Below, piece by piece: positions 4,283 through 24,257 of a stretch of DNA of 64,000 nucleotides. The position numbers were made by a program, and so were the translations under genes. The notes beneath the pieces are model-generated. The model was not told the origin of the DNA. It made no database searches and saw nothing but the letters and a program-made list of their open reading frames with translations. Location: the IMG/VR virus record IMGVR_UViG_3300009500_000011, positions 104,585 through 168,584 of that record; one strand, 5' to 3'. The number at the start of each line of letters is the position of its first letter. Positions within the stretch are counted from its first letter, which is position 1. The DNA is from a virus (Duplodnaviria > Heunggongvirae > Uroviricota > Caudoviricetes).

Positions 4283-5812
4283 ATGTTAGATGCCGATTCT
4301 GATTCTCTTTTTGATGTACCTGTGTCACACAATTCTTTATTTTCATCTGTTACTCCAACTCCAAATCCACCCAAAAGTAGTATTTCTAGTTTTAATGAAA
4401 ATAATCCTAATAAAAGTCGTTTGGATAAATTTTTTAAAGGTTTAAGCAAAGAAGAAAAACAAGAATTAAAACGTAAAATTCAAGATGAAGCATATACATT
4501 TACTGATTCTTTGTATTCAATTATTGTTGATATAGCTCGCGGGCAAGGAAAACAAGTAATAGATTATCCTGAACGTTGGTTATTACCAGAAGACCAAAGT
4601 GATGTTGATGAAACATCAATGGCTTCATTAACTAAAAATCTTGTTATCGGGTATACAAAATATATCAATGTTGTTTACTATTTGTCATTTGATTATTTAG
4701 TTCACACGAAATATTCTATCGTTAAAAGTTTTTTAATGAGAGGTGATGAACATAGACCTCCATATAAATCTAAATTTGATATTTCTTTGGATGAACAAAA
4801 AGAAGTTGTTATTCAAGGTATTTTTCACATCATAAATAATGAAAACAAAAATAAACTTCAAGTTGAAGTTACTGATGAAGCTATTATTATTACTGGATTA
4901 AACACGGATAATGAAGCTGAAAAATTTCGTGAAACTTTTGAAGAAGAACTAAAAAATAATGATGTTTTTAAAAATAAAACTTTCACTTTTACAGATAAAT
5001 TATTTCCAAAATTTATTAAACAAAGTGGTGTTGAAAGAGCGGATGTTGTTTTCCCAAAAGAAATTTGGAAAGAAATTGAAATTAATGTTATAAATGTATT
5101 TTTAAAAAATGAACAATATGTCGCCAAAAATATACCTACTAAACGCGGTATTATTTTGGAAGGACCTCCAGGTAATGGAAAATCGTTACTTGTAAAATAT
5201 ATAGAGAATGCTCTTGCTGATAAGGTAACTTTTATTTATGTTACTGATGCTTTAGTTGCAAATCCTAATTCTTTAAGTAAAATATTTGATATTGCTCGTC
5301 GGTATACTCCGTGTGTTCTTGTTTTAGAAGATGTAGATTCTATTGGTTCTTCTAGAGAATACGGAAATCCAAGTATTACTGCTGAACTTCTTTCACGATT
5401 AGATGGTTTGGAAGAATTAGTAGATTTTGTTACTATTGCTACTACAAATTTTCCTGAAAAAATTGATGATGCATTAAAAAATAGACCTAATCGTTTTGAT
5501 AGAAGAATCAAAATTAAATTGCCAAGTCCAGAAAGATGTGCCGAACTTTTAAAAATTTCCCTAAATCATAGAGGCGTTTTAAATATAAAAAATGAAGAAG
5601 TAAATCAAATTAGTGAAAAATTAAATGGGTTTTCAGGGGCACAAATTAAAGAAGTTATTATTACTGCACAGATGATTGCTCTTTATGAAAATAGAGAAGT
5701 TGAATACAAAGATTTAATTCAATCTGTTGAATTTTTAAAAGAAAACTATTATGATGACAAAAATATCGGAGTTGGAGATACTTCTAAGAAAAAAGTAGGA
5801 TTTAGAGGATGA
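4283..5812 (+). CDS. AAA+ ATPase
   Basis: Walker A GPPGNGKS; Walker B VLVLEDVD; sensor/arginine region. Confidence 0.75.
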   Translation: MLDADSDSLFDVPVSHNSLFSSVTPTPNPPKSSISSFNENNPNKSRLDKFFKGLSKEEKQELKRKIQDEAYTFTDSLYSIIVDIARGQGKQVIDYPERWLLPEDQSDVDETSMASLTKNLVIGYTKYINVVYYLSFDYLVHTKYSIVKSFLMRGDEHRPPYKSKFDISLDEQKEVVIQGIFHIINNENKNKLQVEVTDEAIIITGLNTDNEAEKFRETFEEELKNNDVFKNKTFTFTDKLFPKFIKQSGVERADVVFPKEIWKEIEINVINVFLKNEQYVAKNIPTKRGIILEGPPGNGKSLLVKYIENALADKVTFIYVTDALVANPNSLSKIFDIARRYTPCVLVLEDVDSIGSSREYGNPSITAELLSRLDGLEELVDFVTIATTNFPEKIDDALKNRPNRFDRRIKIKLPSPERCAELLKISLNHRGVLNIKNEEVNQISEKLNGFSGAQIKEVIITAQMIALYENREVEYKDLIQSVEFLKENYYDDKNIGVGDTSKKKVGFRG

Positions 5813-6513
5813 ATTTAAAATTTAAAAATCGAATTGCTTTAATTGGTAGAATGGGTAGTGGAAAATCAGAAATTGCAAAACACTTTGTCAATAGTTTAAA
5901 TTTTAAGCGTGTTGCTTTAGGTGATGCTTTAAAAGAAGAAATTGTTAATTATGGTTTAATACCTGGAAGTATTATTGAAAAAAGTAGAGATAGAAAAACA
6001 CTTCAAGATTGGGGACAACATCGCAGAGGTGAAAAAGAACGTTTTGTTTTTAAATCCAAACTTTTTCATAATAAAAATAAAGTTTCTGATGGTGTAACCA
6101 ATTATATAAATTATCAAGGGAAAAAATTAAGTCTTGTAACATACAATGTTGATTCATATAATATGATTTCCAAAAGTTTTGGTGAATGTTACCTAGATTA
6201 TTGGATTGATTTATTGATGCCAAATGTCAAAAAATTAATTGCTCAAGGTAATTATGTAATTAATGATGATATTCGTCGTCAAAATGAACTTGATGCTTTT
6301 AAATATATGGGATTTACTACTGTAAAAATATCTGTTGAAAACGATATAAGATATAAACGATTAAAAATTAGAGATAATCAATCTGATTTTGATGAGTCTA
6401 TTATGAATGATATTTCAGAAAATGAAATAGATTCATTAATTGCTGATTTCGATATTAGTAATAATGGTACAATTGAAGAAACTTTGAGTACACTATATCA
6501 ATATATAATGTAA
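5809..6513 (+). CDS. P-loop nucleoside/nucleotide (dNMP) kinase-like protein
   Basis: N-terminal IALIGRMGSGKSE P-loop; ~230 aa. Confidence 0.6.
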   Translation: MNLKFKNRIALIGRMGSGKSEIAKHFVNSLNFKRVALGDALKEEIVNYGLIPGSIIEKSRDRKTLQDWGQHRRGEKERFVFKSKLFHNKNKVSDGVTNYINYQGKKLSLVTYNVDSYNMISKSFGECYLDYWIDLLMPNVKKLIAQGNYVINDDIRRQNELDAFKYMGFTTVKISVENDIRYKRLKIRDNQSDFDESIMNDISENEIDSLIADFDISNNGTIEETLSTLYQYIM

Positions 6514-6542
6514 CATTTAATTAAATATTCCCTATAATATTA

Positions 6543-6572
6543 AAGAAGAAATTTTAATTTTCTTCTTTTTTC
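6543..6572 (+). terminator. intrinsic terminator
   Basis: aagaagaaattttaattttcttctttttt hairpin plus T-run. Confidence 0.6.
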
Positions 6573-6605
6573 TATTCTTTATATCGAAAGAAGTAATTTA
6601 TTATA

Positions 6606-6983
6606 GTGAGAACATTTGACGACGTAAGTCCAGAAAAACATAAAGAAATATCTATAAAAGTTTTAAAATATTGGTTAAAAAACATTTATAAGATGGATGG
6701 TTTATCAACTCCGTCTAATGGTGTTATCAAGCAAGAAGATATTTTATTGCAATCTCAACAACTAGGTAATGTTTTTTGTTTAAAATTAGATATTACTGCT
6801 GCAATTGATACGTTACCACTTCGCTTAAAAAAAATTGTTTATCTTCATTATATAATTGGTTTCCCGGTTAGTAAAATTTGTTTAATGTTAGGGTTTAAAT
6901 TTCGTGTTGACCTTTATAGAAGACTTGACGAATGCTTTGAAATAATGTATGATTTTTTAGGACCTAATTGGTTACGTTCTTAA
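6606..6983 (+). CDS. sigma-70 region-4-like HTH protein (possible phage transcription factor); start uncertain (GTG or internal ATG)
   Basis: LPLRLKKIVYLHYIIGFPVSKICLMLGF resembles sigma region 4.2 (LP.RER.V..L....G.S..EIA..LG). Confidence 0.4.
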   Translation: MRTFDDVSPEKHKEISIKVLKYWLKNIYKMDGLSTPSNGVIKQEDILLQSQQLGNVFCLKLDITAAIDTLPLRLKKIVYLHYIIGFPVSKICLMLGFKFRVDLYRRLDECFEIMYDFLGPNWLRS

Positions 6984-6994
6984 TAAGAATCAAT

Positions 6995-7546
6995 ATGGAA
7001 AATCTTTTAAAATCAGCAAAAAATATAGGATGTATTGGGACTAAGGATGATTTAGACGAGATTAGAATTAAAACTTGTCTTTTGATTGGTTATTGGATAG
7101 CAAAACAAAATAAGTTTGTTCATAGTGGAAACGCTAAAGGTTGTGATAATTTGTATGCAACTGGAGCAAATAATGTTAATCCATCTTTGGTTCACTTATA
7201 TTTAAGTGATAATAAGCATAATTCTAAATTCATAGTAGATGGAAATATTTTACATTATCAAGAAGATTTTCCTGATTGGTCTGGAATTGCTGAAATGTAT
7301 CATCCGCGATACAATTTCTTGCCGAAATATGCACAAAAACTGTTTAATCGTAATGCTGGAATTGTTCTTGCTTCGGATTTAGTTATCGCTATGCCAAGTA
7401 GATTAAAGTCTTGGGGTGGTGGAACAGGACATGGAATGAAGATAGCCAAAGGTCTTGGTATCCCAGTTATTAATTTGAGCCGAGAAGAAGAAAGAGAAGA
7501 AATTATTAAATTTATATTAAATGATAGCGACGTTTTTTCGTTGTAA
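6995..7546 (+). CDS. DprA/Smf-like Rossmann-fold (SLOG) nucleotide-binding protein
   Basis: GNAKGCDNLYATGA...AGIVLASDLVIAMPSRLKSWGGGTGHGMKIAKGLGIPV matches the DprA/LOG fold signature; ATG at 6995 is preferred over the track's TTG start. Confidence 0.55.
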   Translation: MENLLKSAKNIGCIGTKDDLDEIRIKTCLLIGYWIAKQNKFVHSGNAKGCDNLYATGANNVNPSLVHLYLSDNKHNSKFIVDGNILHYQEDFPDWSGIAEMYHPRYNFLPKYAQKLFNRNAGIVLASDLVIAMPSRLKSWGGGTGHGMKIAKGLGIPVINLSREEEREEIIKFILNDSDVFSL

Positions 7547-7561
7547 ACAAGATGGTGATTT

Positions 7562-8041
7562 ATGGAAATTATAGAAACTACTACTTCCGAAAGCGCAAAC
7601 CCACTTATAATAGATGAATTAGACTCAAAGACTCAGGAAATGGTTGAAGAAATTATTGCAAAGGAACCTCAACAACCCTTGCATGTTGTTTCAGAGATTC
7701 CAATAACTATGGATAATTTTGATTTATTAAAGAAAAAATATCGTCCATTAATGTGGAGATATATTCGTTTGGTGCATAATATGCATAATAAATCTGTTGA
7801 ATTTGATGATTTAGAACAAGAAGCAGATTGGGCATTATGGAATTCAATTAAAAATTTTGATGATACTAGAAATGTATTTTTTCCTGTTTATTTAGGTAAA
7901 GCTGTGCTAAATCGCTTATTATGTTATTGTCGAAATTACTTACCTCATTTCTATAAAAAAGACCCCGAAAAAGAAGGTAAGTTTAAGCGTGTTAAAGTTA
8001 ATGTTGATACTTTAGACGACCCAAATACTTATAATTTTTAA
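7562..8041 (+). CDS. sigma-70 region-2-like protein
   Basis: FDDLEQEADWALWNSIKNFDDTRNVFFPVYLGKAV resembles sigma region 2.1-2.2. Confidence 0.4.
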   Translation: MEIIETTTSESANPLIIDELDSKTQEMVEEIIAKEPQQPLHVVSEIPITMDNFDLLKKKYRPLMWRYIRLVHNMHNKSVEFDDLEQEADWALWNSIKNFDDTRNVFFPVYLGKAVLNRLLCYCRNYLPHFYKKDPEKEGKFKRVKVNVDTLDDPNTYNF

Positions 8042-8045
8042 TTAA

Positions 8046-8411
8046 ATGCAAAAACAAGATATAGACAAAATTTTATCTACGGTATATGAATTGTACGATT
8101 TGCGTCTTCAAATGGCTAATCTTATTCAGGATTTACAAGAAAATTTAGGTAAAATAGAAAATTCTGAAAATCAATTGGTTAATATGTCATATATATTAAG
8201 AGATTTTTGGGAAACTTTGTCTAACATAGATTTAAATGAATCTTTTTCTTTTATTAATGATATAGAACAAAATGCAAATGAACTATCATATAAAGTGAGG
8301 AAGGCAGAAGAAGAGATTAGAACGGCTGTAAATCCTATATTAAAAAATACGCCAGTATATTTTGATGCACTTCATCCACCAAACGAATTAGATTATTTTA
8401 GTAAGGAATAA
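8046..8411 (+). CDS. hypothetical protein
   Basis: ORF track; tight + strand packing. Confidence 0.5.
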   Translation: MQKQDIDKILSTVYELYDLRLQMANLIQDLQENLGKIENSENQLVNMSYILRDFWETLSNIDLNESFSFINDIEQNANELSYKVRKAEEEIRTAVNPILKNTPVYFDALHPPNELDYFSKE

Positions 8412-8417
8412 AAATTT

Positions 8418-8780
8418 ATGTCAGTAAATACACCAACTGCTCCTACAAGTGGAGCAACTACTCCAACGAATACAACTTCGGACCAAATCAAAGCAGTTCT
8501 TGTTCATGTTGGAATTTTAGCTGCATTAGGCGCAGGAGTCGCATTAATTCCAGCATTAATTGCTTGGTTAACAAATGCAAACTTTTCTACCTTATTGCCT
8601 CCAGCATTAGCTGTATATGGCTCTATGATTGTACCACTTGTTGTTTCTGCTTTACAAAAAGTTCAAGCACAATTGCAAGCACAACTTGCACAAGAACAAG
8701 CCGCAGTTGCAAATGCTCAAGTTTCGGCACTTCAAGCCAAATTGTTAACTTTAACGCCTAAGTCTAAAAAAACTTCATAA
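8418..8780 (+). CDS. small Ala-rich membrane protein (two TM helices) with coiled-coil tail
   Basis: hydrophobic AVLVHVGILAALGAGVALIPALIAWL segment; RBS aaggaataaaaatttatg. Confidence 0.5.
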   Translation: MSVNTPTAPTSGATTPTNTTSDQIKAVLVHVGILAALGAGVALIPALIAWLTNANFSTLLPPALAVYGSMIVPLVVSALQKVQAQLQAQLAQEQAAVANAQVSALQAKLLTLTPKSKKTS

Positions 8781-8781
8781 A

Positions 8782-9054
8782 ATGGACTTAGTGAGAAAAA
8801 CCGTTGAGCTTTCTGAATTACCGTTTCAATTTGAAGGTGCTTCAGTAAGAATAAAGTATAAAGGTCCAAATATAAATAAAGACAATATAGTGATTCCAAC
8901 ATCGGACAATTATATTGTCGAAGTTTATGACCCAAAAGATAATGAATGGAAAGTTTGGCATATGGTTCAATCAATTAAGATTGAAATAGATGTAAATACA
9001 AAAATTCCAAAATTAGAAATATCTTGGATTGATAAAACAAACGGTATTTTTTAA
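8782..9054 (+). CDS. hypothetical protein
   Basis: ORF track. Confidence 0.5.
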   Translation: MDLVRKTVELSELPFQFEGASVRIKYKGPNINKDNIVIPTSDNYIVEVYDPKDNEWKVWHMVQSIKIEIDVNTKIPKLEISWIDKTNGIF

Positions 9055-9057
9055 AAT

Positions 9058-9084
9058 AAAGGAACCTAAAAACAGGTTCCTTTA
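9058..9084. terminator. bidirectional terminator between convergent genes
   Basis: aaaggaacctaaaaacaggttccttt perfect 10-bp hairpin with T/A tracts on both sides. Confidence 0.65.
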
Positions 9085-9113
9085 TTGTTTATGAGTCAAC
9101 CAATAGGCGCTTT

Positions 9114-9836
9114 TTATGTTGGGTCTTGGTCAAGAGCCCATAGGTCACTTATTAAGGAAGCATCAGCTTTAATGAGATGAGCCATATTACGAATCCATGC
9201 CGCAGATGAATGAACGGAAGCAATTGCTGTTGTTGCATCATTTAATAAATGATTTTGACTTGGGTCTAAACATGCAATGTCCCAGCGACAAGAAGAATCT
9301 CCTGAAAAGATTCCATATCCTCTTTGAGGAACGGTATCTTCTCCATCGTCATTTGTTTGAAGTGCGCGTTCACCGTGAGTTGAAACAATATAAATAGGTC
9401 CATTTATTAAAACAGATGGTTCTACAGAAACATTAAATGAACCGTTTGCTTCAATATTTTTTATTTTACAAACTCTTGCTACAATTCCGGCATGAATCCA
9501 TGCATGTGCAAAAGTATAAGGATTTGGACCCCAAGAACCTGTAGTAGTTACATCTGAACCATCCATCGTAAGAGCAGCGATTTCAACGTTTGCGCTTCCA
9601 TCACGGGGGTCAGAATTAAGGTGCCATGTTCCGTATGTCGTAACATCAGTTAAGTTGTTGTTTTTATAAATTGTGAATGCGTTTTTAAGAGTTTTCCAAT
9701 CAATTTTTGAGGGGTCGGTTACAGTTCCAAGAGAGGCGATATATTCACTTGAAAGATTGCCTGTTAAAGCAAATTCAATATGATAATCTCTCTGTCTTGT
9801 TGGTGGAGTAACGCTCCAATGACATGTTAAAATCAT
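9114..9836 (-). CDS. hypothetical protein; one of only a few convincing minus-strand genes
   Basis: 240-aa ORF bounded by the bidirectional terminator and a divergent promoter region; no recognisable motif. Confidence 0.55.
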   Translation of the reverse strand: MILTCHWSVTPPTRQRDYHIEFALTGNLSSEYIASLGTVTDPSKIDWKTLKNAFTIYKNNNLTDVTTYGTWHLNSDPRDGSANVEIAALTMDGSDVTTTGSWGPNPYTFAHAWIHAGIVARVCKIKNIEANGSFNVSVEPSVLINGPIYIVSTHGERALQTNDDGEDTVPQRGYGIFSGDSSCRWDIACLDPSQNHLLNDATTAIASVHSSAAWIRNMAHLIKADASLISDLWALDQDPT

Positions 9837-9846
9837 TTTAAAAATC

Positions 9847-10038
9847 CTAATTTAATTTTTGAATAGTAATAGTAGTTCCGCCTTCAGTAATAGAAACGTC
9901 TCCAAGACCATAGGCAGATAAATTAGCTGTTGTAGTCATTGTTGGAATTTGAACAACGATTGGTTTATTATCTTCAAAATTAGAAATATCTTTTAAAATA
10001 GCACCAATCATGCGAAGGTCTGTAAGTGGATTGCTCAT
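9847..10038 (-). CDS. hypothetical small protein, co-oriented with 9114..9836
   Basis: 63-aa ORF 10 nt upstream of the 240-aa gene; TATAAT directly upstream of its ATG on the minus strand. Confidence 0.45.
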   Translation of the reverse strand: MSNPLTDLRMIGAILKDISNFEDNKPIVVQIPTMTTTANLSAYGLGDVSITEGGTTITIQKLN

Positions 10039-10053
10039 AATTATACCCTTTAT

Positions 10054-10714: not shown

Positions 10715-11146
10715 TTGGAAGCTTTTGGAACTCATGTGATTCTTGAATTATCACAATGCGTAAATATACATTCATTTGATTCTAACGAAACGCTTGAAGT
10801 GATGATGTTGGAATCTGTGCAAAAAGGAAATTTAAGTCCTTTGCTAATAAAGACTCATAAATTTGACCCTCAAGGCATTAGCTCTGTAGCTATTTTGCAA
10901 GAAAGTCATTTAAGTTGTCATTTATTTCCTGAGATAGGATATGCTTCAATGGATGTTTATACCTGTGGAGAACAAAATAGAGTGGGTGCATATCTTGCTG
11001 CATCTAATTTTGCTTTTTGTATAGGTGCAAAAGAAATAACTATTTTAGGCTTAAAAAGAGGTATTCCCTTTACTAAAGGTTATACCTATAGAATAGATAC
11101 AGAATCATATAATTTATTTTATGATGATTTCTTAGGGAAAATATAA
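10715..11146 (+). CDS. S-adenosylmethionine decarboxylase proenzyme (pyruvoyl-dependent, SpeH/SpeD class)
   Basis: MEAFGTHVILELSQC ... ESHLSCHLFPE ... MDVYTCGE family signature including the self-cleaving Ser. Confidence 0.7.
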   Translation: MEAFGTHVILELSQCVNIHSFDSNETLEVMMLESVQKGNLSPLLIKTHKFDPQGISSVAILQESHLSCHLFPEIGYASMDVYTCGEQNRVGAYLAASNFAFCIGAKEITILGLKRGIPFTKGYTYRIDTESYNLFYDDFLGKI

Positions 11147-11659
11147 ATGGATTTTTTAGTTGGCGATATATTAGTTTTAAAACAAGATGCTCTTGACCTT
11201 GAAGATAAAACTGGCAAAACAATTTTATATCCCGCAGGTTCCGAAGCTGAAATTATACAAATAAAAAATGAAAATGAATATCATCTGCAATTTCCAGATG
11301 CCAAAATATGGCCTCATGACTTGGCAACTTTATTGATTTTCTTTAATCGTAAAAAAGATGGTAAAAATGTTTATACTCGCCAGGTTTCAGAGTATGGTAC
11401 GCCACCAAAAGAGCTTGCTTTTTATATACCTAGAGAAGTTGATTGGCGTAAAAACTATAGGTATACTGTCAGAATTGAAGCAGAAGATTGTGGCTTTAAA
11501 AAATTGATTTGTCCTAGTTGTTTCAATGACCTGGGAGAAAATGGCGAACCAGATAATGAAGGTTTGCAAAAATGTCAAAAATGTGGTACAATGGTTCTCC
11601 CGATAGACCCATTAACATTCAAGTATCCACATGATGACGGAAATGAACACACAACTTAA
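11147..11659 (+). CDS. hypothetical protein with C-terminal Cys4 zinc ribbon
   Basis: CPSCF...CQKCG. Confidence 0.5.
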   Translation: MDFLVGDILVLKQDALDLEDKTGKTILYPAGSEAEIIQIKNENEYHLQFPDAKIWPHDLATLLIFFNRKKDGKNVYTRQVSEYGTPPKELAFYIPREVDWRKNYRYTVRIEAEDCGFKKLICPSCFNDLGENGEPDNEGLQKCQKCGTMVLPIDPLTFKYPHDDGNEHTT

Positions 11660-12935
11660 GAGTAATTCTCAAAAATTCTTAGAAGCAGCAAATTGGGCTC
11701 TTGTAAAAGAACGCTTTGGCGAAGATACAGGAGTTAATATTCGTCGCGCTTCTATAGATAATGTGCAAAATATTACGCTTTTCAATGGTTCAAAAGGTTT
11801 ACTTTTTGATGGATATTCGTTTCCTGAACAAGAACATCTTAAAGGCTTGATTGTTCACGAAGTATTAGGAAGCGCACATTCGGTTATAGCGGCATGTTTT
11901 CCTAAATTCTATAACTATGGCGAACCTGCTGAAAAACAAAAGCATCTTGAATACTTAAATGACGATTCTATGAGTGTGTTATTTGCTAAGAAAGAGGATG
12001 GAGTAAATATTCGTCCTTATTTCAATGCTGCAACAAATAGAGTTGAATTTGCTACGCGCGGAACCTTGCTTGTTGTTTCTGATATTGAAGAAACGTCTAA
12101 TCTTGATTATGGCGCAATGGCTCGTTCAATTGCAGAAGAAAAATATCCAATTCTTTTGGATGAGGAATTTGTAAAGAAATACTCTTGTATTTTTGAAATG
12201 ATTCATCCTGATTCCAAAATTCTTACGGATTATGGACAAAGAAAAGACCTTATTCTTCTGTCAGTATTTGATTTAGAAAATAACTGCTATGAATTTTCGC
12301 GTGAATGGGTAGCATCTTGGGCAAATATAATTGGGTTAAATTATGTTGAATATTGGTTTGACCAATATGCGCCTGTTTCTGAATTTTCTTCTTTAGTTGA
12401 AAAACTACTTAAAAAATGGAACGAAACGGATGTAGAAGGTTCTGTTGTTATATTTGTAAACTCTGAAGCAGAACCTGTATATCGTCTTAAAGTTAAAAAT
12501 GCTTATTATTTACAAATGCTTCGACTTGCAAAATTTTGCACTTTGAAGAATTTAGTCTCAATCATGGAAGAAAATAACTTTTCAAATTGGGAACAACTTC
12601 GTGCATATTTGTACGAAAGCCCTTCAATGAATGAAGAATTAGAAATGGCATATAAGGCTCATTTTGATGTATATGAAAATTGGTTAGCAAATCTTGAAAT
12701 CGAAAAACAAAATGTTTTAAAAGAATATCAAGAATTACCTTCTTTCGAATTACAAAAAGATTTTGCTTTATACATCTTAAAAGATGGCGCTTATCCATAC
12801 AATCCGCTATTCTTTGCTATTCGCAAATGGTTAGCAGAAGCCAAAAATCCTAATTTAGAACAATTCTTTGAAGAAAATGTTAAAGCAACAGTAATGTTGA
12901 AGAAAATCTATCCACTATCGGAAGTAGAGGAATAA
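11631..12935 (+). CDS. ATP-dependent RNA ligase, Rnl1 (T4 RnlA)-like
   Basis: nucleotidyltransferase motif I FAKKEDGVNIR (KxDG) at a position comparable to T4 Rnl1; 434 aa. Confidence 0.7.
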   Translation: MMTEMNTQLKSNSQKFLEAANWALVKERFGEDTGVNIRRASIDNVQNITLFNGSKGLLFDGYSFPEQEHLKGLIVHEVLGSAHSVIAACFPKFYNYGEPAEKQKHLEYLNDDSMSVLFAKKEDGVNIRPYFNAATNRVEFATRGTLLVVSDIEETSNLDYGAMARSIAEEKYPILLDEEFVKKYSCIFEMIHPDSKILTDYGQRKDLILLSVFDLENNCYEFSREWVASWANIIGLNYVEYWFDQYAPVSEFSSLVEKLLKKWNETDVEGSVVIFVNSEAEPVYRLKVKNAYYLQMLRLAKFCTLKNLVSIMEENNFSNWEQLRAYLYESPSMNEELEMAYKAHFDVYENWLANLEIEKQNVLKEYQELPSFELQKDFALYILKDGAYPYNPLFFAIRKWLAEAKNPNLEQFFEENVKATVMLKKIYPLSEVEE

Positions 12936-12936
12936 C

Positions 12937-13443
12937 ATGGGTTTATTTGATTATGTAATTTGTGATTATCCTTTACCTGATTCATATAAAGGGAGTATTA
13001 AGTTTACAACTAAAGACTTAAATTCTTTTATGAATACTTTTACTATTACTGAATCAGGTCAACTTTTAGAACACAAATTTCATTTTGAAGAAGTTCCTGA
13101 AGAAGAACGTCCTAAATTTAATACACCCGAATGGAATTCTGATAACGAAACAATTAAAACTTGGACACGCTTAATGGGTTCAAAGATTCAAGTATTTGAT
13201 GGCTTGGAACCCTACCTTTACACAGGTGCTGTTTGTTTTTACGGTTCAAATTTAGATAGTTGTAATTCGGATGGATATTATACTACAGAAAATGATGAAC
13301 CTTATGAATACAAAGAATACATTGCTTTGTTTAAAAATGGTATGTTAATTAACATTATTGAAAATAATGAAAAAGACAATGAATTTTTTACTCCAGAATG
13401 TTTTTTAACACAAAAACAGTATAAAGAAAAATATAATGAATGA
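12937..13443 (+). CDS. hypothetical protein
   Basis: ORF track. Confidence 0.5.
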   Translation: MGLFDYVICDYPLPDSYKGSIKFTTKDLNSFMNTFTITESGQLLEHKFHFEEVPEEERPKFNTPEWNSDNETIKTWTRLMGSKIQVFDGLEPYLYTGAVCFYGSNLDSCNSDGYYTTENDEPYEYKEYIALFKNGMLINIIENNEKDNEFFTPECFLTQKQYKEKYNE

Positions 13444-14197
13444 CTCGCTTGGCGACCGAATGAAAACATATTATGAAGATGTGACGCGGCATTACTTGCC
13501 TCGGCGAACTCATACAATTATTCGGTTAGATGGAAAATCTTTTCATACGTATACAAAAAAATTAGCAAGACCATTTGATGCTGGTTTGATTGAAGATATG
13601 CAAAAAACCACAATTCGACTTTGTGAGAATATTCAGGGCGTTGTTCTTGGTTATACGCAATCTGATGAAATATCTCTTGTTTTATGTGATTATAAAGAAA
13701 AAGAAACTGAATCCTTTTTTAAAGGTAATATTCAAAAAATTTGTTCAGTATCTGCAAGTATGGCTACTGCATTCTTCAATGCTTTTAGACAAGCCCGTAA
13801 TTTTGAAGGTGGTCCAGCATTTTTTGATGCTAGAGTATTTACTATTCCAGAAAAGGTAGAAGTTCTTAATTATCTTATTTGGAGACAAAAAGATGCAACA
13901 AGAAATTCTATTCAAATGGCCGCACAATCTGTTTATTCTCATAAAGAACTTAATAAAAAGAAGTGGTCTGATTTAAATGAAATGCTTTTTCAGAAAGGTA
14001 TTAATTTTAATGATTATTCTTCTTCTGAAAAACGTGGTTCTTTAATTGTGAAAGAATATTTTGAAGGGGAAGCCTATGATAAGCGTAAGCAAGAAAATGT
14101 TATAGTTACTCGGTCGCGTTGGATTGTAGAACCTGAAACACCTCTTTTTACTGCTGAAGAAAATAGAGATTTATTTGAAAGGTATTTATATAAATAA
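13436..14197 (+). CDS. Thg1-like protein (tRNA-His guanylyltransferase family / TLP, 3'-5' nucleotide addition)
   Basis: N-terminal MKTYYEDVTR...IIRLDGKSFHTYTKK...KPFD matches the conserved Thg1 N-terminus (FE...R.DG..FH.F). Confidence 0.75.
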   Translation: MNDSLGDRMKTYYEDVTRHYLPRRTHTIIRLDGKSFHTYTKKLARPFDAGLIEDMQKTTIRLCENIQGVVLGYTQSDEISLVLCDYKEKETESFFKGNIQKICSVSASMATAFFNAFRQARNFEGGPAFFDARVFTIPEKVEVLNYLIWRQKDATRNSIQMAAQSVYSHKELNKKKWSDLNEMLFQKGINFNDYSSSEKRGSLIVKEYFEGEAYDKRKQENVIVTRSRWIVEPETPLFTAEENRDLFERYLYK

Positions 14198-14349: not shown

Positions 14350-15051
14350 ATGTATATGCCAAAAAAACAATCTTCTCAAACACCTAGAAGAATTCCAACC
14401 ATAAGAACGGTACAATTTGAAGCCCAAACAATAAATCAAGAGAAGTTTGTAAAAAATATAGAAAGAAATGTTGTTTCATTCGGAATAGGTATACCAGGTT
14501 CAGGAAAAACGTATTTAGCATTAGCAACTGCTCTTAAAGCATTAGTTGAACAAAAATGTGAACGAGTTGTAATAACTAGACCAATGGTTGAAGCAGGTCC
14601 TTCTATCGGATTCCAACCTGGAAATGAAGAAGAAAAACTTGGAGTATATTTAAAACATATTTATGATATGATATATAAATTACTACCAAAAGTTTTGGCA
14701 GATGATTTGCTTGATTCAGGAAAAATATCAATTGGTGCTATTACATTTATGAGAGGAATGAATTTTGAAAACTCATATGTAATAATAGATGAAGCCGAAA
14801 ACTTAGACAAAAAATCATTTTATTTGTTATTAACAAGAATTTGTGAAGGGTCTAAAATGATTTTTTGTGGTGATACTGGCCAGGTTGATTTAAAAAATCC
14901 TAGTGAAAGCGGATTAAATGATGCAGTTTTAAAATTTCAAGGTAAAGAAAATTTTAGTGTAACTGAATTTACTATTGAAGATTGTCGCAGAAGTAAAGTT
15001 GTTATGGAAGTTATTAAAGCATATTTCCCTAACTCAACCAAGACAAAGTAA
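14350..15051 (+). CDS. phoH: PhoH-like ATPase
   Basis: GIGIPGSGKTYLALA Walker A; IIDEAEN Walker B; overall PhoH layout. Confidence 0.85.
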   Translation: MYMPKKQSSQTPRRIPTIRTVQFEAQTINQEKFVKNIERNVVSFGIGIPGSGKTYLALATALKALVEQKCERVVITRPMVEAGPSIGFQPGNEEEKLGVYLKHIYDMIYKLLPKVLADDLLDSGKISIGAITFMRGMNFENSYVIIDEAENLDKKSFYLLLTRICEGSKMIFCGDTGQVDLKNPSESGLNDAVLKFQGKENFSVTEFTIEDCRRSKVVMEVIKAYFPNSTKTK

Positions 15052-16875: not shown

Positions 16876-16950
16876 GGCTCTATAGTGTAGTGGTCTGCAT
16901 AAAAGCTTGTCACGCTTTAGGTCGGGGGTCGGAACCCCGTAGAGTCGCCA
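16876..16950 (+). tRNA. tRNA-Asp (anticodon GTC), CCA encoded
   Basis: acceptor ggctcta/tagagtc; anticodon loop ttGTCac; unusual T-loop GTCGGAA. Confidence 0.7.
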
Positions 16951-17025
16951 TCCCCTTGTCGCTTAATGGTCTAAAGCAACTTACTGATAATGAGTAGATG
17001 AAAGTTCGATTCTTTCCGAGGGGAC
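16951..17025 (+). tRNA. tRNA-Ile (anticodon GAT)
   Basis: acceptor tcccctt/gagggga; anticodon loop ctGATaa; T-arm gaaagttcgattctttc. Confidence 0.6.
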
Positions 17026-17049
17026 CAAAATACATATAATTTGGAATAT

Positions 17050-17126
17050 GGCAACATAGCCAAGGGGATAAAGGCGAAGGTCTGCAAAACCTTCATGCGT
17101 TGGTTCGAATCCAACTGTTGCCTCCA
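17050..17126 (+). tRNA. tRNA-Cys (anticodon GCA), CCA encoded
   Basis: acceptor ggcaaca/tgttgcc; loop ctGCAaa; T-loop ggttcgaatcc. Confidence 0.75.
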
Positions 17127-17137
17127 ATTTAATTTAT

Positions 17138-17224
17138 GGAAGTATCGCATAGCGGCGATTGCATCTGACTGTAAATCAGACGCGCGAAAGCGCCTCGGAG
17201 GTTCGAGTCCTTCTACTTCCACCA
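17138..17224 (+). tRNA. tRNA-Tyr (anticodon GTA), long variable arm, CCA encoded
   Basis: acceptor ggaagta/tacttcc; loop ctGTAaa; variable arm cgcgcgaaagcgcctc. Confidence 0.75.
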
Positions 17225-17237
17225 TTTTAATAATATT

Positions 17238-17308
17238 TTGAGTTGCGCTAGAATAAAGTTACTTCGTCTGTAAAACGAGGAATCCGGGTTCGAGTCCCGG
17301 TCGGAATC
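17238..17308 (+). ncRNA. tRNA-like / Y-RNA-like element: 5' motif GAGTTGCGCTAGAATAAAGTTACTTC, then anticodon-like hairpin (loop ctGTAaa) and canonical T-arm, but no pairable acceptor stem
   Basis: 5' 26 nt match the triplicated motif upstream of the Ro60 gene (45037, 45278, 45367); T-arm ccgggttcgagtcccgg. Confidence 0.45.
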
Positions 17309-17399
17309 TAACGATTTCGGTACTTTAATCGGTAAAATCCTAAACACTTTGTTCGCTACCTTCGCTCAAAATATTTTAAAAACTTGTTGCCCATAGTAT

Positions 17400-17474
17400 G
17401 CCGAACTAGTATAATGGCTATTACATCTGTTTCGTAATCAGAGAATCTCAGTTCAATTCTGGGGTTCGGCCCCA
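17400..17474 (+). tRNA. tRNA-Thr (anticodon CGT as read), CCA encoded
   Basis: perfect acceptor gccgaac/gttcggc; loop ttCGTaa with U-U at 31:39. Confidence 0.6.
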
Positions 17475-17485
17475 AAAAAATTTAT

Positions 17486-17562
17486 TCCTCTATAGCACAA
17501 TTGGTAGTTGCATCTGACTGTTAATCAGAGGGTTCCTGGTTCGACCCCAGGTAGAGGAGCCA
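17486..17562 (+). tRNA. tRNA-Asn (anticodon GTT), CCA encoded
   Basis: acceptor tcctcta/tagagga like E. coli Asn; loop ctGTTaa. Confidence 0.75.
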
Positions 17563-17567
17563 ATTAT

Positions 17568-17641
17568 TCCTTCTTCGTTCAATGGTAGGACGTCTGGTTG
17601 TTACCCAGATAATCGCGGTTCAAGTCCGTGAGAAGGAGCCA
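17568..17641 (+). tRNA. second tRNA with anticodon GTT (Asn-type), distinct body
   Basis: acceptor tccttct/agaagga; anticodon stem tctgg/ccaga; loop ttGTTac. Confidence 0.55.
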
Positions 17642-17712
17642 ATTTATTCAGTTCGAAAATTATTATAAATTCAAACTAACTTACATACTATACATTTCAG
17701 AGGTACAAAATA

Positions 17713-18174
17713 ATGAAATGTAGAGTATGTAAAATAGAAAAAGAAATTGAATTATTCCCTTGGGCTAAAGTAGGTGCTAGACGTAGTTCTCGTTGTAAAG
17801 ATTGTCAAAAAATTTTAAGTAAAAAACACTATCAAAATAATAAAAAATATTATCAAGATAAAGAAAAAATTCGCCGCGAAAAATATTATAGTGAAACCAA
17901 TAAATTACTTTATGATTATTTAATTGAGCATCCATGTGTAAAATGTGGCGAATCTGAACCATTATTTTTGGATTTTGACCATTGTACTGGAACAAATGAT
18001 AAAATAGCAAATATTTCAGTTTTAGTTTCAATTAAAGTAAATTTTGATAAAATTCTTAAAGAAATAGAAAAATGTCAAGTATTATGTTTAAAATGCCACA
18101 GAATAAAAACTGCCAAAGAAGGTAATTGGTATAAATATCAAAGATATATAGAAAAACAAAATTTAAAAAATTAA
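17713..18174 (+). CDS. HNH homing endonuclease (paralog 1 of 3)
   Basis: Cys4 N-terminal zinc finger; DFDHCTGTNDKIANI ... CQVLCLKCHRIKT HNH core; paralogous to 36827 and 59627. Confidence 0.75.
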   Translation: MKCRVCKIEKEIELFPWAKVGARRSSRCKDCQKILSKKHYQNNKKYYQDKEKIRREKYYSETNKLLYDYLIEHPCVKCGESEPLFLDFDHCTGTNDKIANISVLVSIKVNFDKILKEIEKCQVLCLKCHRIKTAKEGNWYKYQRYIEKQNLKN

Positions 18175-18270
18175 AATCTTGCAGTTTGGGTATACTGCGT
18201 TCGTCGTCGTGGAGAAAGACTTTCTGATTAAGGATGTTTCCAAGGACAGTAAAACAAAAATACTCGTTAT

Positions 18271-18345
18271 GGCCCAGTCGTCTAGTGGCTAGGATTGCTG
18301 ATTTTCACTCAGTAGAAGGCGGGTCGGAACCGCTCTGGGCTACCA
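18271..18345 (+). tRNA. tRNA-Glu (anticodon TTC), CCA encoded
   Basis: acceptor ggcccag/ctgggct; loop ttTTCac; T-loop GTCGGAA (same oddity as tRNA-Asp). Confidence 0.7.
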
Positions 18346-18372
18346 AATTTTAGATTAAGAAAAGAGAAGAGA

Positions 18373-18615
18373 ATGCAAAAAATTCAAATTGTTTATACAG
18401 ATAATCCAAGTGAAATAGAAGCAGTTTTTATTGATGGTAAGATAGTTGCTGCTTGGTATTTAAGTGATGCAAGTTGGCGTGGTGAATATTTTAATGGATT
18501 CATGGGAAAACTTGGTATTGAAGTAGATGATTATAGTCGAGCAACTTCGGAACAAATTGAATCTATTAAAGATTGGTTTAATTTAGATGAAGATGAATTA
18601 CTTTATGCCTTATGA
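18373..18615 (+). CDS. hypothetical protein; stop codon overlaps the 5' end of tRNA-Gln
   Basis: ORF track; tRNA 5' end tgcctta begins inside the final codons. Confidence 0.5.
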   Translation: MQKIQIVYTDNPSEIEAVFIDGKIVAAWYLSDASWRGEYFNGFMGKLGIEVDDYSRATSEQIESIKDWFNLDEDELLYAL

Positions 18616-18676
18616 TGTAATGGTAGCATAAGATGCTCTGAACATCTTTGTAATCGTTCGAGTCGATTTAAGGCAG
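18606..18676 (+). tRNA. tRNA-Gln (anticodon CTG)
   Basis: acceptor tgcctta/taaggca; anticodon stem agatg/catct; loop ctCTGaa; T-arm aatcgttcgagtcgatt. Confidence 0.65.
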
Positions 18677-18684
18677 CGATTTAA

Positions 18685-18759
18685 TCCCTTGTCGTCTAAT
18701 TGGTAGGACGCGAGATTTTGGTTCTCGCTATCGTGGTTCGAGTCCATGCGAGGGAACCA
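18685..18759 (+). tRNA. tRNA-Gln (anticodon TTG), CCA encoded
   Basis: acceptor tcccttg/cgaggga; loop ttTTGgt. Confidence 0.65.
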
Positions 18760-18766
18760 GTTTTAT

Positions 18767-18843
18767 TGGAGAATGGCCAAGTTGGTAAGGCACCTCGCTT
18801 TGAACGAGGAAATGCGAAGGTTCGATGCCTTCTTCTCCAGCCA
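18767..18843 (+). tRNA. second tRNA with anticodon TTG (3-bp D stem, 6-nt variable loop), CCA encoded
   Basis: acceptor tggagaa/ttctcca; loop ctTTGaa; T-arm gaaggttcgatgccttc. Confidence 0.55.
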
Positions 18844-18867
18844 AATTTTTTAAATATCAAACATCGA

Positions 18868-18943
18868 CCGGGTTTAGCTGAGACGGTTCAAGCGTGTCCC
18901 TGAAGAGGACGAGACGGGGATTCGAGCGCCCCAACCCGGACCA
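18868..18943 (+). tRNA. tRNA-Phe (anticodon GAA), CCA encoded
   Basis: acceptor ccgggtt/aacccgg; loop ctGAAga; T-loop ttcgagc. Confidence 0.65.
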
Positions 18944-18948
18944 ATCAT

Positions 18949-19020
18949 TGGAGTGGTAGCATAGAGGTAATGTACCGTTTTATCGCGAGCGGGATGAAGG
19001 TTCGAGTCCTTCCCCTCCAG
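18949..19020 (+). tRNA. tRNA-like gene with canonical T-arm and acceptor but unresolved anticodon arm (possible pseudo-tRNA or atypical tRNA)
   Basis: acceptor tggagtg/ccctcca (one mismatch); T-arm gaaggttcgagtccttc; no clean 5-bp/7-nt anticodon hairpin found by eye. Confidence 0.35.
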
Positions 19021-19040
19021 TTCTTTTTTAAAAAGAAATC

Positions 19041-19214
19041 ATGATTAATAAACAATTAGTAAAAGAAGTTGCTGCTCGAATTAAAAATCCATCACCACGT
19101 ACAGCAAAGCGTGAATCTTTTGCTATTGCTTCTATGGTAGCAGAATCTTTAAAATTATCAGGAATAATGACAACTCTAGAAGATGTTTTAAAATCTTATT
19201 ATGGAGATAAATAA
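19041..19214 (+). CDS. hypothetical 57-aa protein (below track cutoff)
   Basis: ATG ORF filling the gap between tRNA cluster and gene 19218. Confidence 0.35.
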   Translation: MINKQLVKEVAARIKNPSPRTAKRESFAIASMVAESLKLSGIMTTLEDVLKSYYGDK

Positions 19215-19217
19215 TTT

Positions 19218-19496
19218 ATGATGAGATTCAAACCTGGTGATAAAGTAACAGCAGTTTTTTCTGCTGATAAGACAGCCCACATAATGAAATATCCAAATGG
19301 TTTGCCCGGATATGACCATTGTTGTGACAAATGCCGTGGCGTTGCTCGCATGGTTTGTTTGGCGTTTATGCATTATGATTTTGGAATTAAAGAGGGAACG
19401 CTTTTACCTACTTGTGAGTTTTGTGCAAAAGGTTTAATTGATGAAGGTAATTTATCTCCTGCTCTTGGAAAATATTTAAAAGAGATACAGGTATGA
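19218..19496 (+). CDS. hypothetical Cys-rich protein
   Basis: RBS ggagataaataatttATG; HCCDKC...CEFC. Confidence 0.55.
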   Translation: MMRFKPGDKVTAVFSADKTAHIMKYPNGLPGYDHCCDKCRGVARMVCLAFMHYDFGIKEGTLLPTCEFCAKGLIDEGNLSPALGKYLKEIQV

Positions 19497-19696
19497 AATA
19501 CAAAGTTGTTTATGAATATTATGCCGGAATGGGTGATTATGGTATTGATGAACGATTTATAGAATCAAGAGAAGAATTAATTAAAATTTTAAATAATGTT
19601 TTTAGGGACGATATAATGATTAATGCTATCAAAATTTATCGTTTAAATCCAAATAGCGAATATTTAGGAGAAATAGATTATCATGACAAAATTTGA
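19493..19696 (+). CDS. hypothetical protein
   Basis: ORF track; start overlaps previous stop. Confidence 0.5.
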   Translation: MKYKVVYEYYAGMGDYGIDERFIESREELIKILNNVFRDDIMINAIKIYRLNPNSEYLGEIDYHDKI

Positions 19697-19913
19697 AGCC
19701 TTGCCTCAATCTCAAGAAAAATATAACCGTAATACAACAACTGACAAAGTTCCTAATGCTACTCAGGCTTCTTTTCGTCGTGCTGAAATGTTAATATGTA
19801 AACATTGCAAGAAAAACTGGAATGAGCATTTAGGTTATTTTGTTGGCAAAGCAGTTCCTGGAATGTGTTTAACTGAAGAAAATTTTAAAGAAACAGGAAC
19901 AAAAATCTCTTAG
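19683..19913 (+). CDS. hypothetical protein
   Basis: ORF track. Confidence 0.5.
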   Translation: MTKFEALPQSQEKYNRNTTTDKVPNATQASFRRAEMLICKHCKKNWNEHLGYFVGKAVPGMCLTEENFKETGTKIS

Positions 19914-19951
19914 TATAAGATAATAATAGAAATTATATTGTCTTTGATTTG

Positions 19952-20026
19952 CAGGTGTCGTATAATGGATAATTACAGGGCATTGCCAATGCTCAAATAG
20001 GAGTTCGATTCTCCTTACCTGCTCCA
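19952..20026 (+). tRNA. tRNA-Gly (anticodon GCC), CCA encoded
   Basis: acceptor gcaggtg/tacctgc; loop ttGCCaa; T-arm aggagttcgattctcct. Confidence 0.7.
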
Positions 20027-20045
20027 ATATATAAAAAAAGGCAAT

Positions 20046-20414
20046 ATGTTTTCGCGTAAAATTTTTAAACCAGTTGAAATTCCAAAGTTTGATTTAAGAC
20101 CAATTAAATTACAAAGATTAGCATTTATAAAAAATTCTTGCTTTCACTCTGATTATTTATGTGTAGAACCCAATGTTGTTGAAGAAATAAAATTCTTTAA
20201 AGACAAATTTTATCCAGTTCAATTCTTTGAAAAAGTAACTCAATTTACTCTATACAGAAGTTTAGACTATTTAGATAATAATACTACTATTGGATTTTAT
20301 AAATATTCTAATATATTTAATATTAATACTAATTTAATAGATTGGATAGGACAAGAATTTGATACCGAGGAATTTCTTAATTATCATGAAGTTATAAAGG
20401 TTACGCGCAAATGA
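20046..20414 (+). CDS. hypothetical protein
   Basis: ORF track. Confidence 0.5.
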   Translation: MFSRKIFKPVEIPKFDLRPIKLQRLAFIKNSCFHSDYLCVEPNVVEEIKFFKDKFYPVQFFEKVTQFTLYRSLDYLDNNTTIGFYKYSNIFNINTNLIDWIGQEFDTEEFLNYHEVIKVTRK

Positions 20415-20578
20415 CAGATTCAACTGTAGATGCAATAAAAAATATGAATCAATTTAAAGATAAACATAGACGTATGCAACTTATGGCTGATATTTTTGAT
20501 GCTTCAAAAGATTTTGAAGAAGATGAAGAAAATAATATAGAAGTAAAAAAAGAAGTTAAAAATAATGCAAATAAATGA
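20411..20578 (+). CDS. hypothetical 55-aa acidic protein (below track cutoff)
   Basis: ATGA start/stop overlap with upstream gene, typical operon coupling. Confidence 0.4.
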   Translation: MTDSTVDAIKNMNQFKDKHRRMQLMADIFDASKDFEEDEENNIEVKKEVKNNANK

Positions 20579-21223: not shown

Positions 21224-21227
21224 AAGA

Positions 21228-22161: not shown

Positions 22162-22163
22162 GA

Positions 22164-22803: not shown

Positions 22804-22893
22804 ATCTAAACAGATTTATATACAAACAATCTTTACTACAATATAAATGCCTATAGGATTCACTAATTAATTCTAAATATTTTATGAGGACAT

Positions 22894-23004: not shown

Positions 23005-23091
23005 AATTTGCACGGGCGTTGGTGACAAGGGACAGGGAAACGACCAACGAAGAATGATGACGGGCGTGGGGTTGTCATTCAAAATAATAAT

Positions 23092-24240: not shown

Positions 24241-24257
24241 ATTCTTAAGAGGATAGA

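Follow-up and report, generated by a model that had tools for sequence, protein, structure and literature searches.

A dispersed set of putative RNA repair enzymes in an uncultured low-GC jumbo phage, with a divergent Rnl1-family ligase and a bacterial-type Thg1-like protein

The closest described systems to the one considered here are the Pnk (PseT) and Rnl1 (RnlA) pair that phage T4 directs against PrrC, the bacterial Pnkp protein with its kinase, metallophosphoesterase and ligase-like domains, and the RNA repair repertoire of jumbo phages against host tRNases reviewed by Iyer, Anantharaman, Krishnan, Burroughs and Aravind in 2021 (PMC7824862, section 3.4.9). The last comprises tRNAs, the ligases Rnl1, Rnl2 and RtcB, polynucleotide kinases, phosphatases of the HAD, calcineurin-like and HD types, RlaP, a CCA-adding enzyme, a Thg1 that is present sporadically, and TROVE paired with a tRNA-like RNA. 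The stretch analysed here is 64,000 nucleotides of the viral record IMGVR_UViG_3300009500_000011 (positions 104,585 to 168,584; hereafter the window), in which an earlier note had described an RNA end-repair kit with an Rnl1-type ligase and a Thg1-like protein (TLP). The window probably does encode a dispersed repertoire for the repair and maintenance of RNA, mainly tRNA, during infection, and the family assignments of its enzymes are held with high confidence (Table 1). The identities of the ligase, the TLP, the RlaP enzyme and the exonuclease given in the earlier note are upheld, and its reading of them, with the tRNA arrays, as a repair repertoire fits two published accounts (PMC7824862; PMC12776372), but the split Pnkp that it added to them is not upheld. 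Its claim that the kit is broader than that of T4 because of the Thg1-like enzyme also falls, since Thg1 is already listed in jumbo-phage kits (PMC7824862) and the isolated Bacillus phage FADO has both an Rnl1-type ligase and a TLP.

The likeness to the published jumbo-phage repertoire lies in the many tRNAs, the ATP-grasp-type ligases including Rnl1, RlaP mirroring the ligases, the sporadic Thg1, and TROVE (ROT) with a tRNA-like RNA. Calcineurin-like phosphatases are also shared, and there they occur in a minority of phages. The difference is that no polynucleotide kinase was found in the window, and that its kinase beside a phosphoesterase is from a rare family not yet described. The general idea of a jumbo-phage repair kit was already published in 2021, and the window is a divergent new instance of it.

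The ligase matches the PF09511 profile over positions 4-227 of 227 with 61.6 bits against a cutoff of 28.3. The covalent nucleotidyltransferase motifs I (KxDG), III, IV (EG) and V (KxK) are all found, with the nucleophile lysine K121 in the KEDG of motif I (nt 11991-12002) from which the earlier note had recognised the gene. In the family alignment of 21 sequences K92/F93, K121/D123/G124, T142/R143, E189, E269/G270 and K287/K289 are invariant. Alignment of the family profile with T4 RnlA by hhalign (probability 96%; the RnlA sequence used is 100% identical to T4 rnlA) places these invariant residues on T4 K75/F77, K99, E159, E227/G228 and K240/K242, which we take, from the mutagenesis literature, to be essential in T4 Rnl1. 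K92-F93 lies in PKFYNxGE, upstream of motif I, and aligns with EKFFNLNE of T4. In the AlphaFold2 model (pLDDT 88) the C-terminal domain is all-helical, its helices spanning residues 291-426, and the best Foldseek match of the model is T4 Rnl1 (2c5u, 2.9e-13); the T4 Rnl1 structures 2c5u, 5tt6 and 9do4 together score 3e-13 to 4e-12, and fungal Trl1-LIG comes after them. By every sequence and fold comparison made, the protein belongs to Rnl1. The family is tiny: 5.8 billion proteins yielded 20 members, and the contigs that carry them reach 313 kb. The ligase shares only about 15% of its residues with T4 Rnl1 and is best described as a predicted member of a new, rare and divergent Rnl1 subfamily.

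Compared with T4, the window has in common an Rnl1 ligase with the same two-domain fold and equivalents of the essential residues, an enzyme of the RlaP family, to which T4 NrdC.11 belongs (PMC12776372), and the setting of phage-encoded enzymes accompanied by phage tRNAs. It differs in that a T4-type Pnk, in which a P-loop kinase is joined to a HAD phosphatase, could not be detected in the window, in the divergence and rarity of the ligase, and in the addition of the TLP, an RNase AS-like exonuclease and a Ro60 protein accompanied by Y-like RNAs. Judged by its predicted proteins, the system resembles T4 Pnk/Rnl1 in the sealing step, has members of the Rnl1, TLP and RlaP families and is not a Pnkp system.

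The Thg1-like identity of the gene at 13436, also proposed in the earlier note, is borne out by PF04446 (101.7 bits, cutoff 29.2), by phrog_4717 "tRNA-His guanylyltransferase" (1.9e-84) and by the closest solved relative, the TLP of Bacillus thuringiensis (PDB 4kgk), which matches residues 3-252 at 6.3e-56. The Thg1C domain scores 22.8 bits, under its cutoff of 26.3, and eukaryotic Thg1 structures reach only 1e-13 to 1e-15. The catalytic carboxylates are present as D32 in IRLDG and D77-E78 in QSDEIS, and they align with those of the B. thuringiensis TLP and of Candida Thg1. The HINNLYN segment, with which Thg1 reads the tRNA-His anticodon, is missing here as in the B. thuringiensis TLP, and WRQKDATRNSIQ is found in place of the WRQVDCHINNLY of Thg1. 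The protein is thus classified as a bacterial-type TLP and a putative template-dependent 3'-5' nucleotidyltransferase, different from the bacterial TLPs in being phage-encoded. Bacterial-type TLPs extend 5'-truncated tRNAs in vitro in a template-dependent manner, and Rao, Maris and Jackman are said to have reported in 2011 that they repair such tRNAs. TLP genes are common in deposited phages, with 164 records that are mostly annotated as tRNA-His guanylyltransferase.

Further enzymes acting on RNA ends lie downstream. The Pol-beta nucleotidyltransferase that the earlier note had placed at 31183 is an RlaP (PF10127, 62.7 bits against a cutoff of 23, and phrog_388). According to a 2025 preprint (PMC12776372), such enzymes extend damaged RNA at its 3'-OH by one or two NMPs. 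The DEDDh exonuclease that the note had also named is RNase AS-like, with 61.6 bits for the Pfam Rv2179c-like family (cutoff 27) and, for the NCBIfam equivalog NF033638 RNase_AS, 5.7e-52 and 176.2 bits, below the 200-bit cutoff. RNase AS is a polyadenylate-specific 3' exoribonuclease. The metallophosphoesterase at 29683, missed in the earlier note, adjoins no kinase in the window. It matches the bacter_Pnkp model TIGR04075 over residues 184-419, and its best PDB matches are 2qjc (1.4e-17), 4j6o (7.2e-16) and then lambda phosphatase 1g5b. The PDB table labels 4j6o just 'Metallophosphoesterase'; we take it to be the phosphatase domain of Clostridium thermocellum Pnkp. Among PHROGs the matches are NinI-like phrog_246 (1.8e-35) and also phrog_8238, a 737-aa 'RNA ligase'. 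Of the proteins in the window it is the strongest candidate for healing 2',3'- or 3'-phosphate ends, but its matches would suit an Ap4A hydrolase or a NinI-like protein phosphatase just as well.

The genes around this phosphoesterase form a group at 28853-32001 with a nucleoside 2-deoxyribosyltransferase-like protein, the lambda/ApaH/Pnkp-like phosphoesterase, a cytidine/dCMP deaminase-like protein, a zinc-ribbon protein and RlaP. The group recurs reshuffled, with the rare kinase discussed below attached, in the unrelated contigs L018 (2910-6639) and L013 (259-4710).

With these enzymes a repair cycle can be proposed. Host tRNases would cut or trim tRNAs, and 3' phosphates would be removed, with the phosphoesterase at 29683 as the candidate enzyme. 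RlaP would restore lost 3' nucleotides, and the TLP, templated by the 3' strand, would rebuild lost 5' nucleotides of the acceptor stem. Sealing of 3'-OH/5'-P breaks in loops would fall to the Rnl1 ligase, and phage tRNAs would replace those beyond mending; for the latter the earlier note gave about 30, in agreement with 32 genes by ARAGORN and 29 by Rfam. No recognisable 5'-OH polynucleotide kinase is found in the window, and this missing step is the main gap of the repertoire. It may be encoded outside the window or performed by the kinase at 47851, or the ligase may act only on breaks with a 5' phosphate.

Table 1. Predicted genes and RNA features of the window that are discussed in the text
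Feature	Position	Strand	Matches and remarks
Canonical dNMP kinase	5809-6513		phrog_139 7.6e-27; within nucleotide-metabolism block
S-adenosylmethionine decarboxylase	10715-11146		PF02675 1.1e-22; first gene of ligase block
p170, 170-aa protein	11147-11659	+	C-terminal CxxC...CxxC zinc ribbon
Rnl1-family ATP-dependent RNA ligase, 434 aa	11631-12935	+	PF09511 RNA_lig_T4_1 1.3e-16
168-aa open reading frame	12937-13443	+	between ligase and TLP; sole match phrog_1615 (unknown function)
Bacterial-type Thg1-like protein (TLP), 253 aa	13436-14197	+	PF04446 Thg1 3.8e-29
PhoH-like ATPase	14350-15051	+	PF02562 1.3e-60
Two tRNA arrays, 22 ARAGORN calls	16876-27979	+	mixed with small open reading frames, RNase AS, metallophosphoesterase
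DEDDh 3'-5' exoribonuclease, Rv2179c/RNase AS type	24447-24935	+	PF16473 9.9e-17
Metallophosphoesterase, lambda-phosphatase/ApaH/Pnkp clade	29683-30408	+	TIGR04075 2.3e-20; ApaH 1.1e-26
RlaP, RNA-ligase-associated Pol-beta nucleotidyltransferase	31183-32001	+	PF10127 5.4e-17; phrog_388 3.9e-47
Non-coding region	44941-45470	+	three tandem Y-RNA-like units after a weak tRNA-like element (44941-45014)
Ro60/TROVE RNA-binding protein with vWA domain	45517-47205	+	PF05731 4.2e-32; PF25045 4e-6; phrog_850 2.1e-46
P-loop kinase	47851-48468	+	Walker A GPLGSGKD (GxxGxGKD); NMP-kinase-like fold
Metallophosphoesterase, aq_1665/YfcE-like (Metallophos_2)	48496-49146	+	PF12850 2.5e-8
Third, looser tRNA set, 10 ARAGORN calls	50048-62944	+	includes tRNA-His with genome-encoded G-1

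Y RNAs next to Ro60 are known in bacteria and phages, and the bacterial Rsr (Ro60) modules with YrlA or YrlB are often part of RNA repair operons with rtcBA (Chen et al. 2014, PMC4201824). The window has a Ro60 gene as well, which the earlier note had missed; its product scores 112 bits with PF05731 (cutoff 23) and 27.3 bits with vWA_Ro60, slightly below the cutoff of 27.7. The non-coding region in front of it contains three units, beginning near 45027, 45275 and 45352, each with the motif TTGCG-N5-6-TAC(A/G)G-N-TACTTCTT...CYGTA...TTCTC, whose part up to TACTTCTT is present in three copies in the window compared with none expected by chance. The A or G of TAC(A/G)G is matched by the T or C of C(T/C)GTA in the units whose 3' partner was found by script; unit 3 of the window and that of the 275-kb relative L009 were paired by eye. 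The first unit is a 236-nt RNA with a perfect 13-bp closing stem (z = -5.3). Seven short units fold independently in the same way, by minimum free energy, into an outer stem, an internal loop and an inner stem, and RNAalifold gives 11 pairs, 6 of them with compensatory changes. Some units contain tRNA-like T-arm sequences. The 640-nt gap before Ro60 is 96% identical between the window and a 94% relative.

A motif scan of metagenomes gave 111 single matches, by a rough estimate about the number expected by chance. Only two of the loci hit (L061 and L120) are real, with three or four tandem copies of the unit upstream of a Ro60 homologue that is 32% identical in L061 and 54% identical over the first 65 residues in L120. 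The Rfam scan of 44700-50100 at E<=1 gave only the weak tRNA match at 44941-45014 and no Y RNA or YrlA model, and relatives of Ro60 were not found in a scan of IMG/VR. The arrangement is similar to the Rsr-YrlA/YrlB modules in having a TROVE and vWA protein after tandem structured RNAs, some with a tRNA-like T-arm. It differs in that the RNAs have a motif of their own and no Rfam family beyond the weak tRNA match, and in that no RtcB is nearby; the neighbours are a rare kinase and a metallophosphoesterase. Ro60 with its putative Y RNAs is classified as a divergent example of a known arrangement.

The kinase follows Ro60 at a distance of two genes, with a 191-aa coiled-coil open reading frame (47283-47858) in between, and the phosphoesterase at 48496 starts 28 nt after the kinase. 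The earlier note was right about the presence and order of the last two genes but not about what they are, for it had read them as the domain combination of Pnkp split into two genes. The model TIGR04075, which matches the phosphoesterase at 29683, matches neither of them. For the protein at 48496 this was so at E<=0.01, and its nearest relatives are aq_1665 (PDB 1xm7, 7.9e-8) and YfcE (6e-4), with phrog_547 at 4.5e-43; as a Pnkp phosphatase it was rejected. No ligase-like adenylyltransferase domain and no Hen1 lie beside the pair, where the neighbours are Ro60, the coiled-coil protein and small open reading frames. The likeness to bacterial Pnkp and Pnkp-Hen1 is limited to the homology of the phosphoesterase at 29683 to the Pnkp phosphoesterase domain; the pair at 47851 and 48496 is not homologous to the Pnkp kinase and phosphatase, no Hen1 was detected in the window, and 29683 has no kinase next to it. 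In essence the two proteins fall in unrelated families, the result that the earlier note had itself named as speaking against a split Pnkp.

The profile of the kinase family has human phosphomevalonate kinase as its best PDB match (8e-9), followed by dephospho-CoA kinases and weakly by T4 dNMP kinase, and CMP and adenylate kinases are also among its relatives by profile and fold. No polynucleotide kinase is among the best 60 of the 153 profile matches, nor a Pnk in the Foldseek top 50, and no Pfam family was assigned at default thresholds. The protein is accordingly placed closest to the phosphomevalonate and dNMP kinases by profile and predicted fold, not in the Pnk family. The kinase family is rare, with 28 representatives among 1.84 billion proteins and one match in a word-indexed search. 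Its fold includes a conserved additional beta-sheet at the C-terminus (residues 168-203), which was not found described in related kinases. Scans of IMG/VR gave no relatives for the kinase and one distant locus for the phosphoesterase.

The neighbours of the kinase vary by lineage. The order Ro60, coiled-coil protein, kinase and Metallophos_2 is found in the window and L009, and kinase followed by Metallophos in L011, so that the adjacency to a phosphoesterase is kept in these two relatives; in L016 a Metallophos_2 gene lies 5 kb downstream. The kinase is followed by an ATP-dependent ligase (PF01068) in L012. In L013-L015 a nucleoside deoxyribosyltransferase-like gene overlaps the kinase, and a HAD protein and a 29683-like phosphoesterase are found 2.5 kb downstream. 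L018 has, in order, a 29683-like phosphoesterase, RlaP, a deoxyribosyltransferase-like gene and the kinase.

These neighbourhoods bear on what the pair does. An action on nucleotides or other small molecules, for example as a (d)NMP kinase with a nucleotidase or phosphodiesterase and no healing of RNA ends, has close to an even chance. Because of the deoxyribosyltransferase neighbours and the fold, the kinase points to nucleotide metabolism: it follows the 2-deoxyribosyltransferase-like gene in two distant lineages (overlapping in L013-L015, about 100 nt downstream in L018), its nearest relatives by profile and fold are small-molecule kinases, it matches the dNMP kinase family phrog_139 weakly, and its Walker A has GKD as in the aligned phosphomevalonate kinases. 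GKD is common to phosphomevalonate and dNMP kinases as a class. The phosphoesterase at 48496, in turn, resembles uncharacterised phosphodiesterases of the aq_1665/YfcE type. On the other hand, a clear dNMP kinase is already encoded elsewhere in the window, the rare kinase is found two genes downstream of Ro60 and the Y-like RNAs in both the window and L009, it adjoins an ATP-dependent ligase in L012, and it lies near RlaP in L018.

An RNA-end role for the kinase is kept among the possible ones because phosphoesterase, RlaP and ligase neighbours recur. In its full form this would make the GxxGxGKD protein an unrecognised RNA-end kinase and, with the metallophosphoesterase, a non-homologous analogue of Pnkp tied to Ro60 and Y RNAs that gives Rnl1 its 5'-kinase step. 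That form is improbable in our judgement. It is compatible with a metallophosphoesterase beside the kinase in five lineages, an ATP-dependent ligase in one and RlaP in one, with the location two genes past Ro60, and with the presence of a separate canonical dNMP kinase. The pair is not a split Pnkp, and the substrate of the kinase leans to small molecules. The rare kinase beside a phosphoesterase, two genes after Ro60 and the Y-like RNAs, is the sole part of the window with real potential for novelty.

Several observations weigh against a concerted repair repertoire. The repair genes are scattered over about 37 kb, and because unrelated genes lie among them it is only by inference that they form one system. 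In searches of most open reading frames of at least 100 aa by Pfam, PHROGs, NCBIfam and fold, a Pnk-family kinase, HAD phosphatase, 2H, RtcB and CCA-adding enzyme were not found; PTH was sought among most open reading frames of that size, also with no result. For the phosphoesterase at 29683, the matches to ApaH/NinI-type phosphatases are no weaker than those to the phosphatase of Pnkp. The link between ligase and TLP is loose and not conserved past close relatives. In L005 (312 kb, ligase identity 47%) the TLP is found 3 kb downstream of the ligase, beyond unrelated methyltransferase, PfkB and glycosyltransferase genes and immediately before PhoH; in L007 and L008 the ligase and PhoH are present with no TLP between them; and none of four IMG/VR TLP loci (47-52% identity) carries a ligase within 10 kb.

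It could be argued from this that the RNA genes are independent accessory genes of a hypervariable, tRNA-rich region, with an incidental adjacency of ligase and TLP and no concerted pathway, which we regard as the less probable course, at roughly one chance in four. The presence and spacing of the TLP differ among relatives, the TLPs of other phages have unrelated neighbours, the two genes lie more than 100 kb apart in FADO, and in the window itself the 168-aa open reading frame has come to lie between them. Against this stand the enzymes themselves, which all act on RNA ends with complementary chemistries, the documented co-distribution of RlaP and ligases (PMC7824862), and the closest relative L134 (93% identical), where ligase and TLP are co-oriented and abutting. 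Some of the other genes are also found together elsewhere: L018 combines RlaP and the kinase with a phosphoesterase like that at 29683, and L013 has the kinase and such a phosphoesterase. A dispersed repair repertoire remains the reading that we prefer.

The block around the ligase is tight and co-oriented just upstream of the tRNA array, with S-adenosylmethionine decarboxylase, p170, ligase, the insert and TLP, and then PhoH. Starts and stops overlap or abut throughout 10715-14197 (p170 overlaps the start of the ligase by 29 nt), and this packing suggests a single transcription unit. The boundaries of the operon rest on gene packing only, because promoters and terminators were not more numerous in a scan than in shuffled sequence. 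The earlier note had the ligase and the Thg1-like gene, both correctly located, two genes apart; only one open reading frame lies between them. The PhoH neighbour that it had named is present. This single intervening open reading frame is missing from L134 and the other relatives, and because the ligase is directly followed by the TLP in L134, with PhoH directly after that, it is probably a recent insertion outside the system. PhoH of L134 (locus 6001-10041) is 584 aa long with a faint homing-endonuclease/intein (Hom_end_hint) Pfam match, and together with the missing 168-aa frame this points to active insertion of small elements in the block.

The conserved backbone of the block consists of S-adenosylmethionine decarboxylase (syntenic in L005, L007 and L134), the 170-aa zinc-ribbon protein, the ligase and PhoH, and the TLP is a variable addition. 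Synteny from ligase to PhoH is kept in L005, L007, L008 and L134. p170 precedes the ligase in four relatives and has no Pfam or PDB match. As a dedicated partner of the ligase it was rejected, for its distant homologues P0057 and P0058 occur without a neighbouring ligase and no fold or family gave a clue; it is a syntenic backbone gene and not specific to the ligase.

The TLP, the ligase or both might instead mature the RNAs of the phage itself and have no part in counter-defence; they could, for example, add G-1 to tRNA-His, edit mismatched acceptor stems at the 5' end or process the Y-like RNAs. The genome offers material for this in its 29-32 tRNAs and several tRNA-like Y RNA modules, and TLPs carry out tRNA 5' editing in the mitochondria of protists. 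However, in the phage tRNA-His G-1 is encoded and faces C73 as in bacteria, an arrangement for which Thg1 is not required, and with G-1 already encoded a role of the TLP in adding it was rejected. An encoded CCA ends 28 of the 32 ARAGORN calls when the last 12 nt are read, including nearly all tRNAs of the arrays at 16876-27979; the four without it are the 67-nt Tyr-like element, the element with a four-base anticodon, tRNA-Gln(ctg) at 18606 and one other. The acceptor stems pair fully in a handful inspected by eye, and on these few 5' editing of the phage tRNAs is unlikely. Maturation of own RNAs is on the whole a poor explanation of these enzymes, with about one chance in ten.

Two of the tRNA-like elements are unusual (the pair at 18948-19021 and 17242-17308): one is called with a four-base anticodon (atcg), its anticodon loop is enlarged and it has no encoded CCA, and the other is Tyr-like, 67 nt long and mismatched in the acceptor. 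Each could be a pseudogene, a frameshift-suppressor-like tRNA or some other tRNA-like RNA. In addition, four tRNAs of normally class I type, Thr-UGU, Lys-CUU, Val-UAC and Arg-ACG (23092-23174, 25104-25188, 58131-58213 and 58686-58776), measure 83-91 nt, and ARAGORN folds them with long variable arms or loops, which is unusual for these isoacceptors.

That the Rnl1 homologue is mainly a virion-assembly factor, as T4 gp63 is in tail-fibre attachment, is hardly credible: phrog_562 is annotated "RNA ligase and tail fiber protein attachment catalyst", but the catalytic residues of the ligase are invariant across the family, the gene sits among early-type nucleotide and RNA genes and not structural genes, and at so low an identity to T4 Rnl1 a T4-specific moonlighting function is unlikely to have been kept.

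The source of the window is an uncultured jumbo phage with a low GC content of about 32%, and the contigs of its relatives are 275-313 kb. Searched by megablast, the ligase-TLP region matched none of 50,697 phage records, the 1191-aa open reading frame has no protein match in deposited phages, and the ribonucleotide reductase is only about 29% identical to that of crAss-like phages. By these comparisons the deposited phages, 50,697 records in all, include no close relative of the lineage. The open reading frames named in the earlier note are all present where it had placed them.

Some other genes of the window deserve mention. A sigma-70 region-2 protein adjoins a SLOG cluster-4 family protein at 6968-8041, and the sigma-like gene there is syntenic in every relative examined. 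The 1191-aa (37311-40886) and 1111-aa (41543-44878) open reading frames have no match in Pfam, PHROGs or the phage database, and both are kept in L009. A BCS1-like AAA ATPase that includes the N-terminal domain of BCS1 (32322-33611), an SPFH/flotillin-like protein (55186-56619), a papain-family cysteine protease (51671-52426) and a vWA protein (23389-24129) are unusual for a phage.

The practical value of these findings is modest and consists of a new Rnl1 subfamily and a phage TLP for biochemical study. The kit as seen has no known 5' kinase, and the substrate of the rare kinase is worth testing. If the repertoire works as proposed, the window would represent another giant phage that survives tRNA-cleaving defences of its host with tRNA repair equipment of its own, and the known repertoire would be extended to an uncultured lineage with very divergent enzymes.

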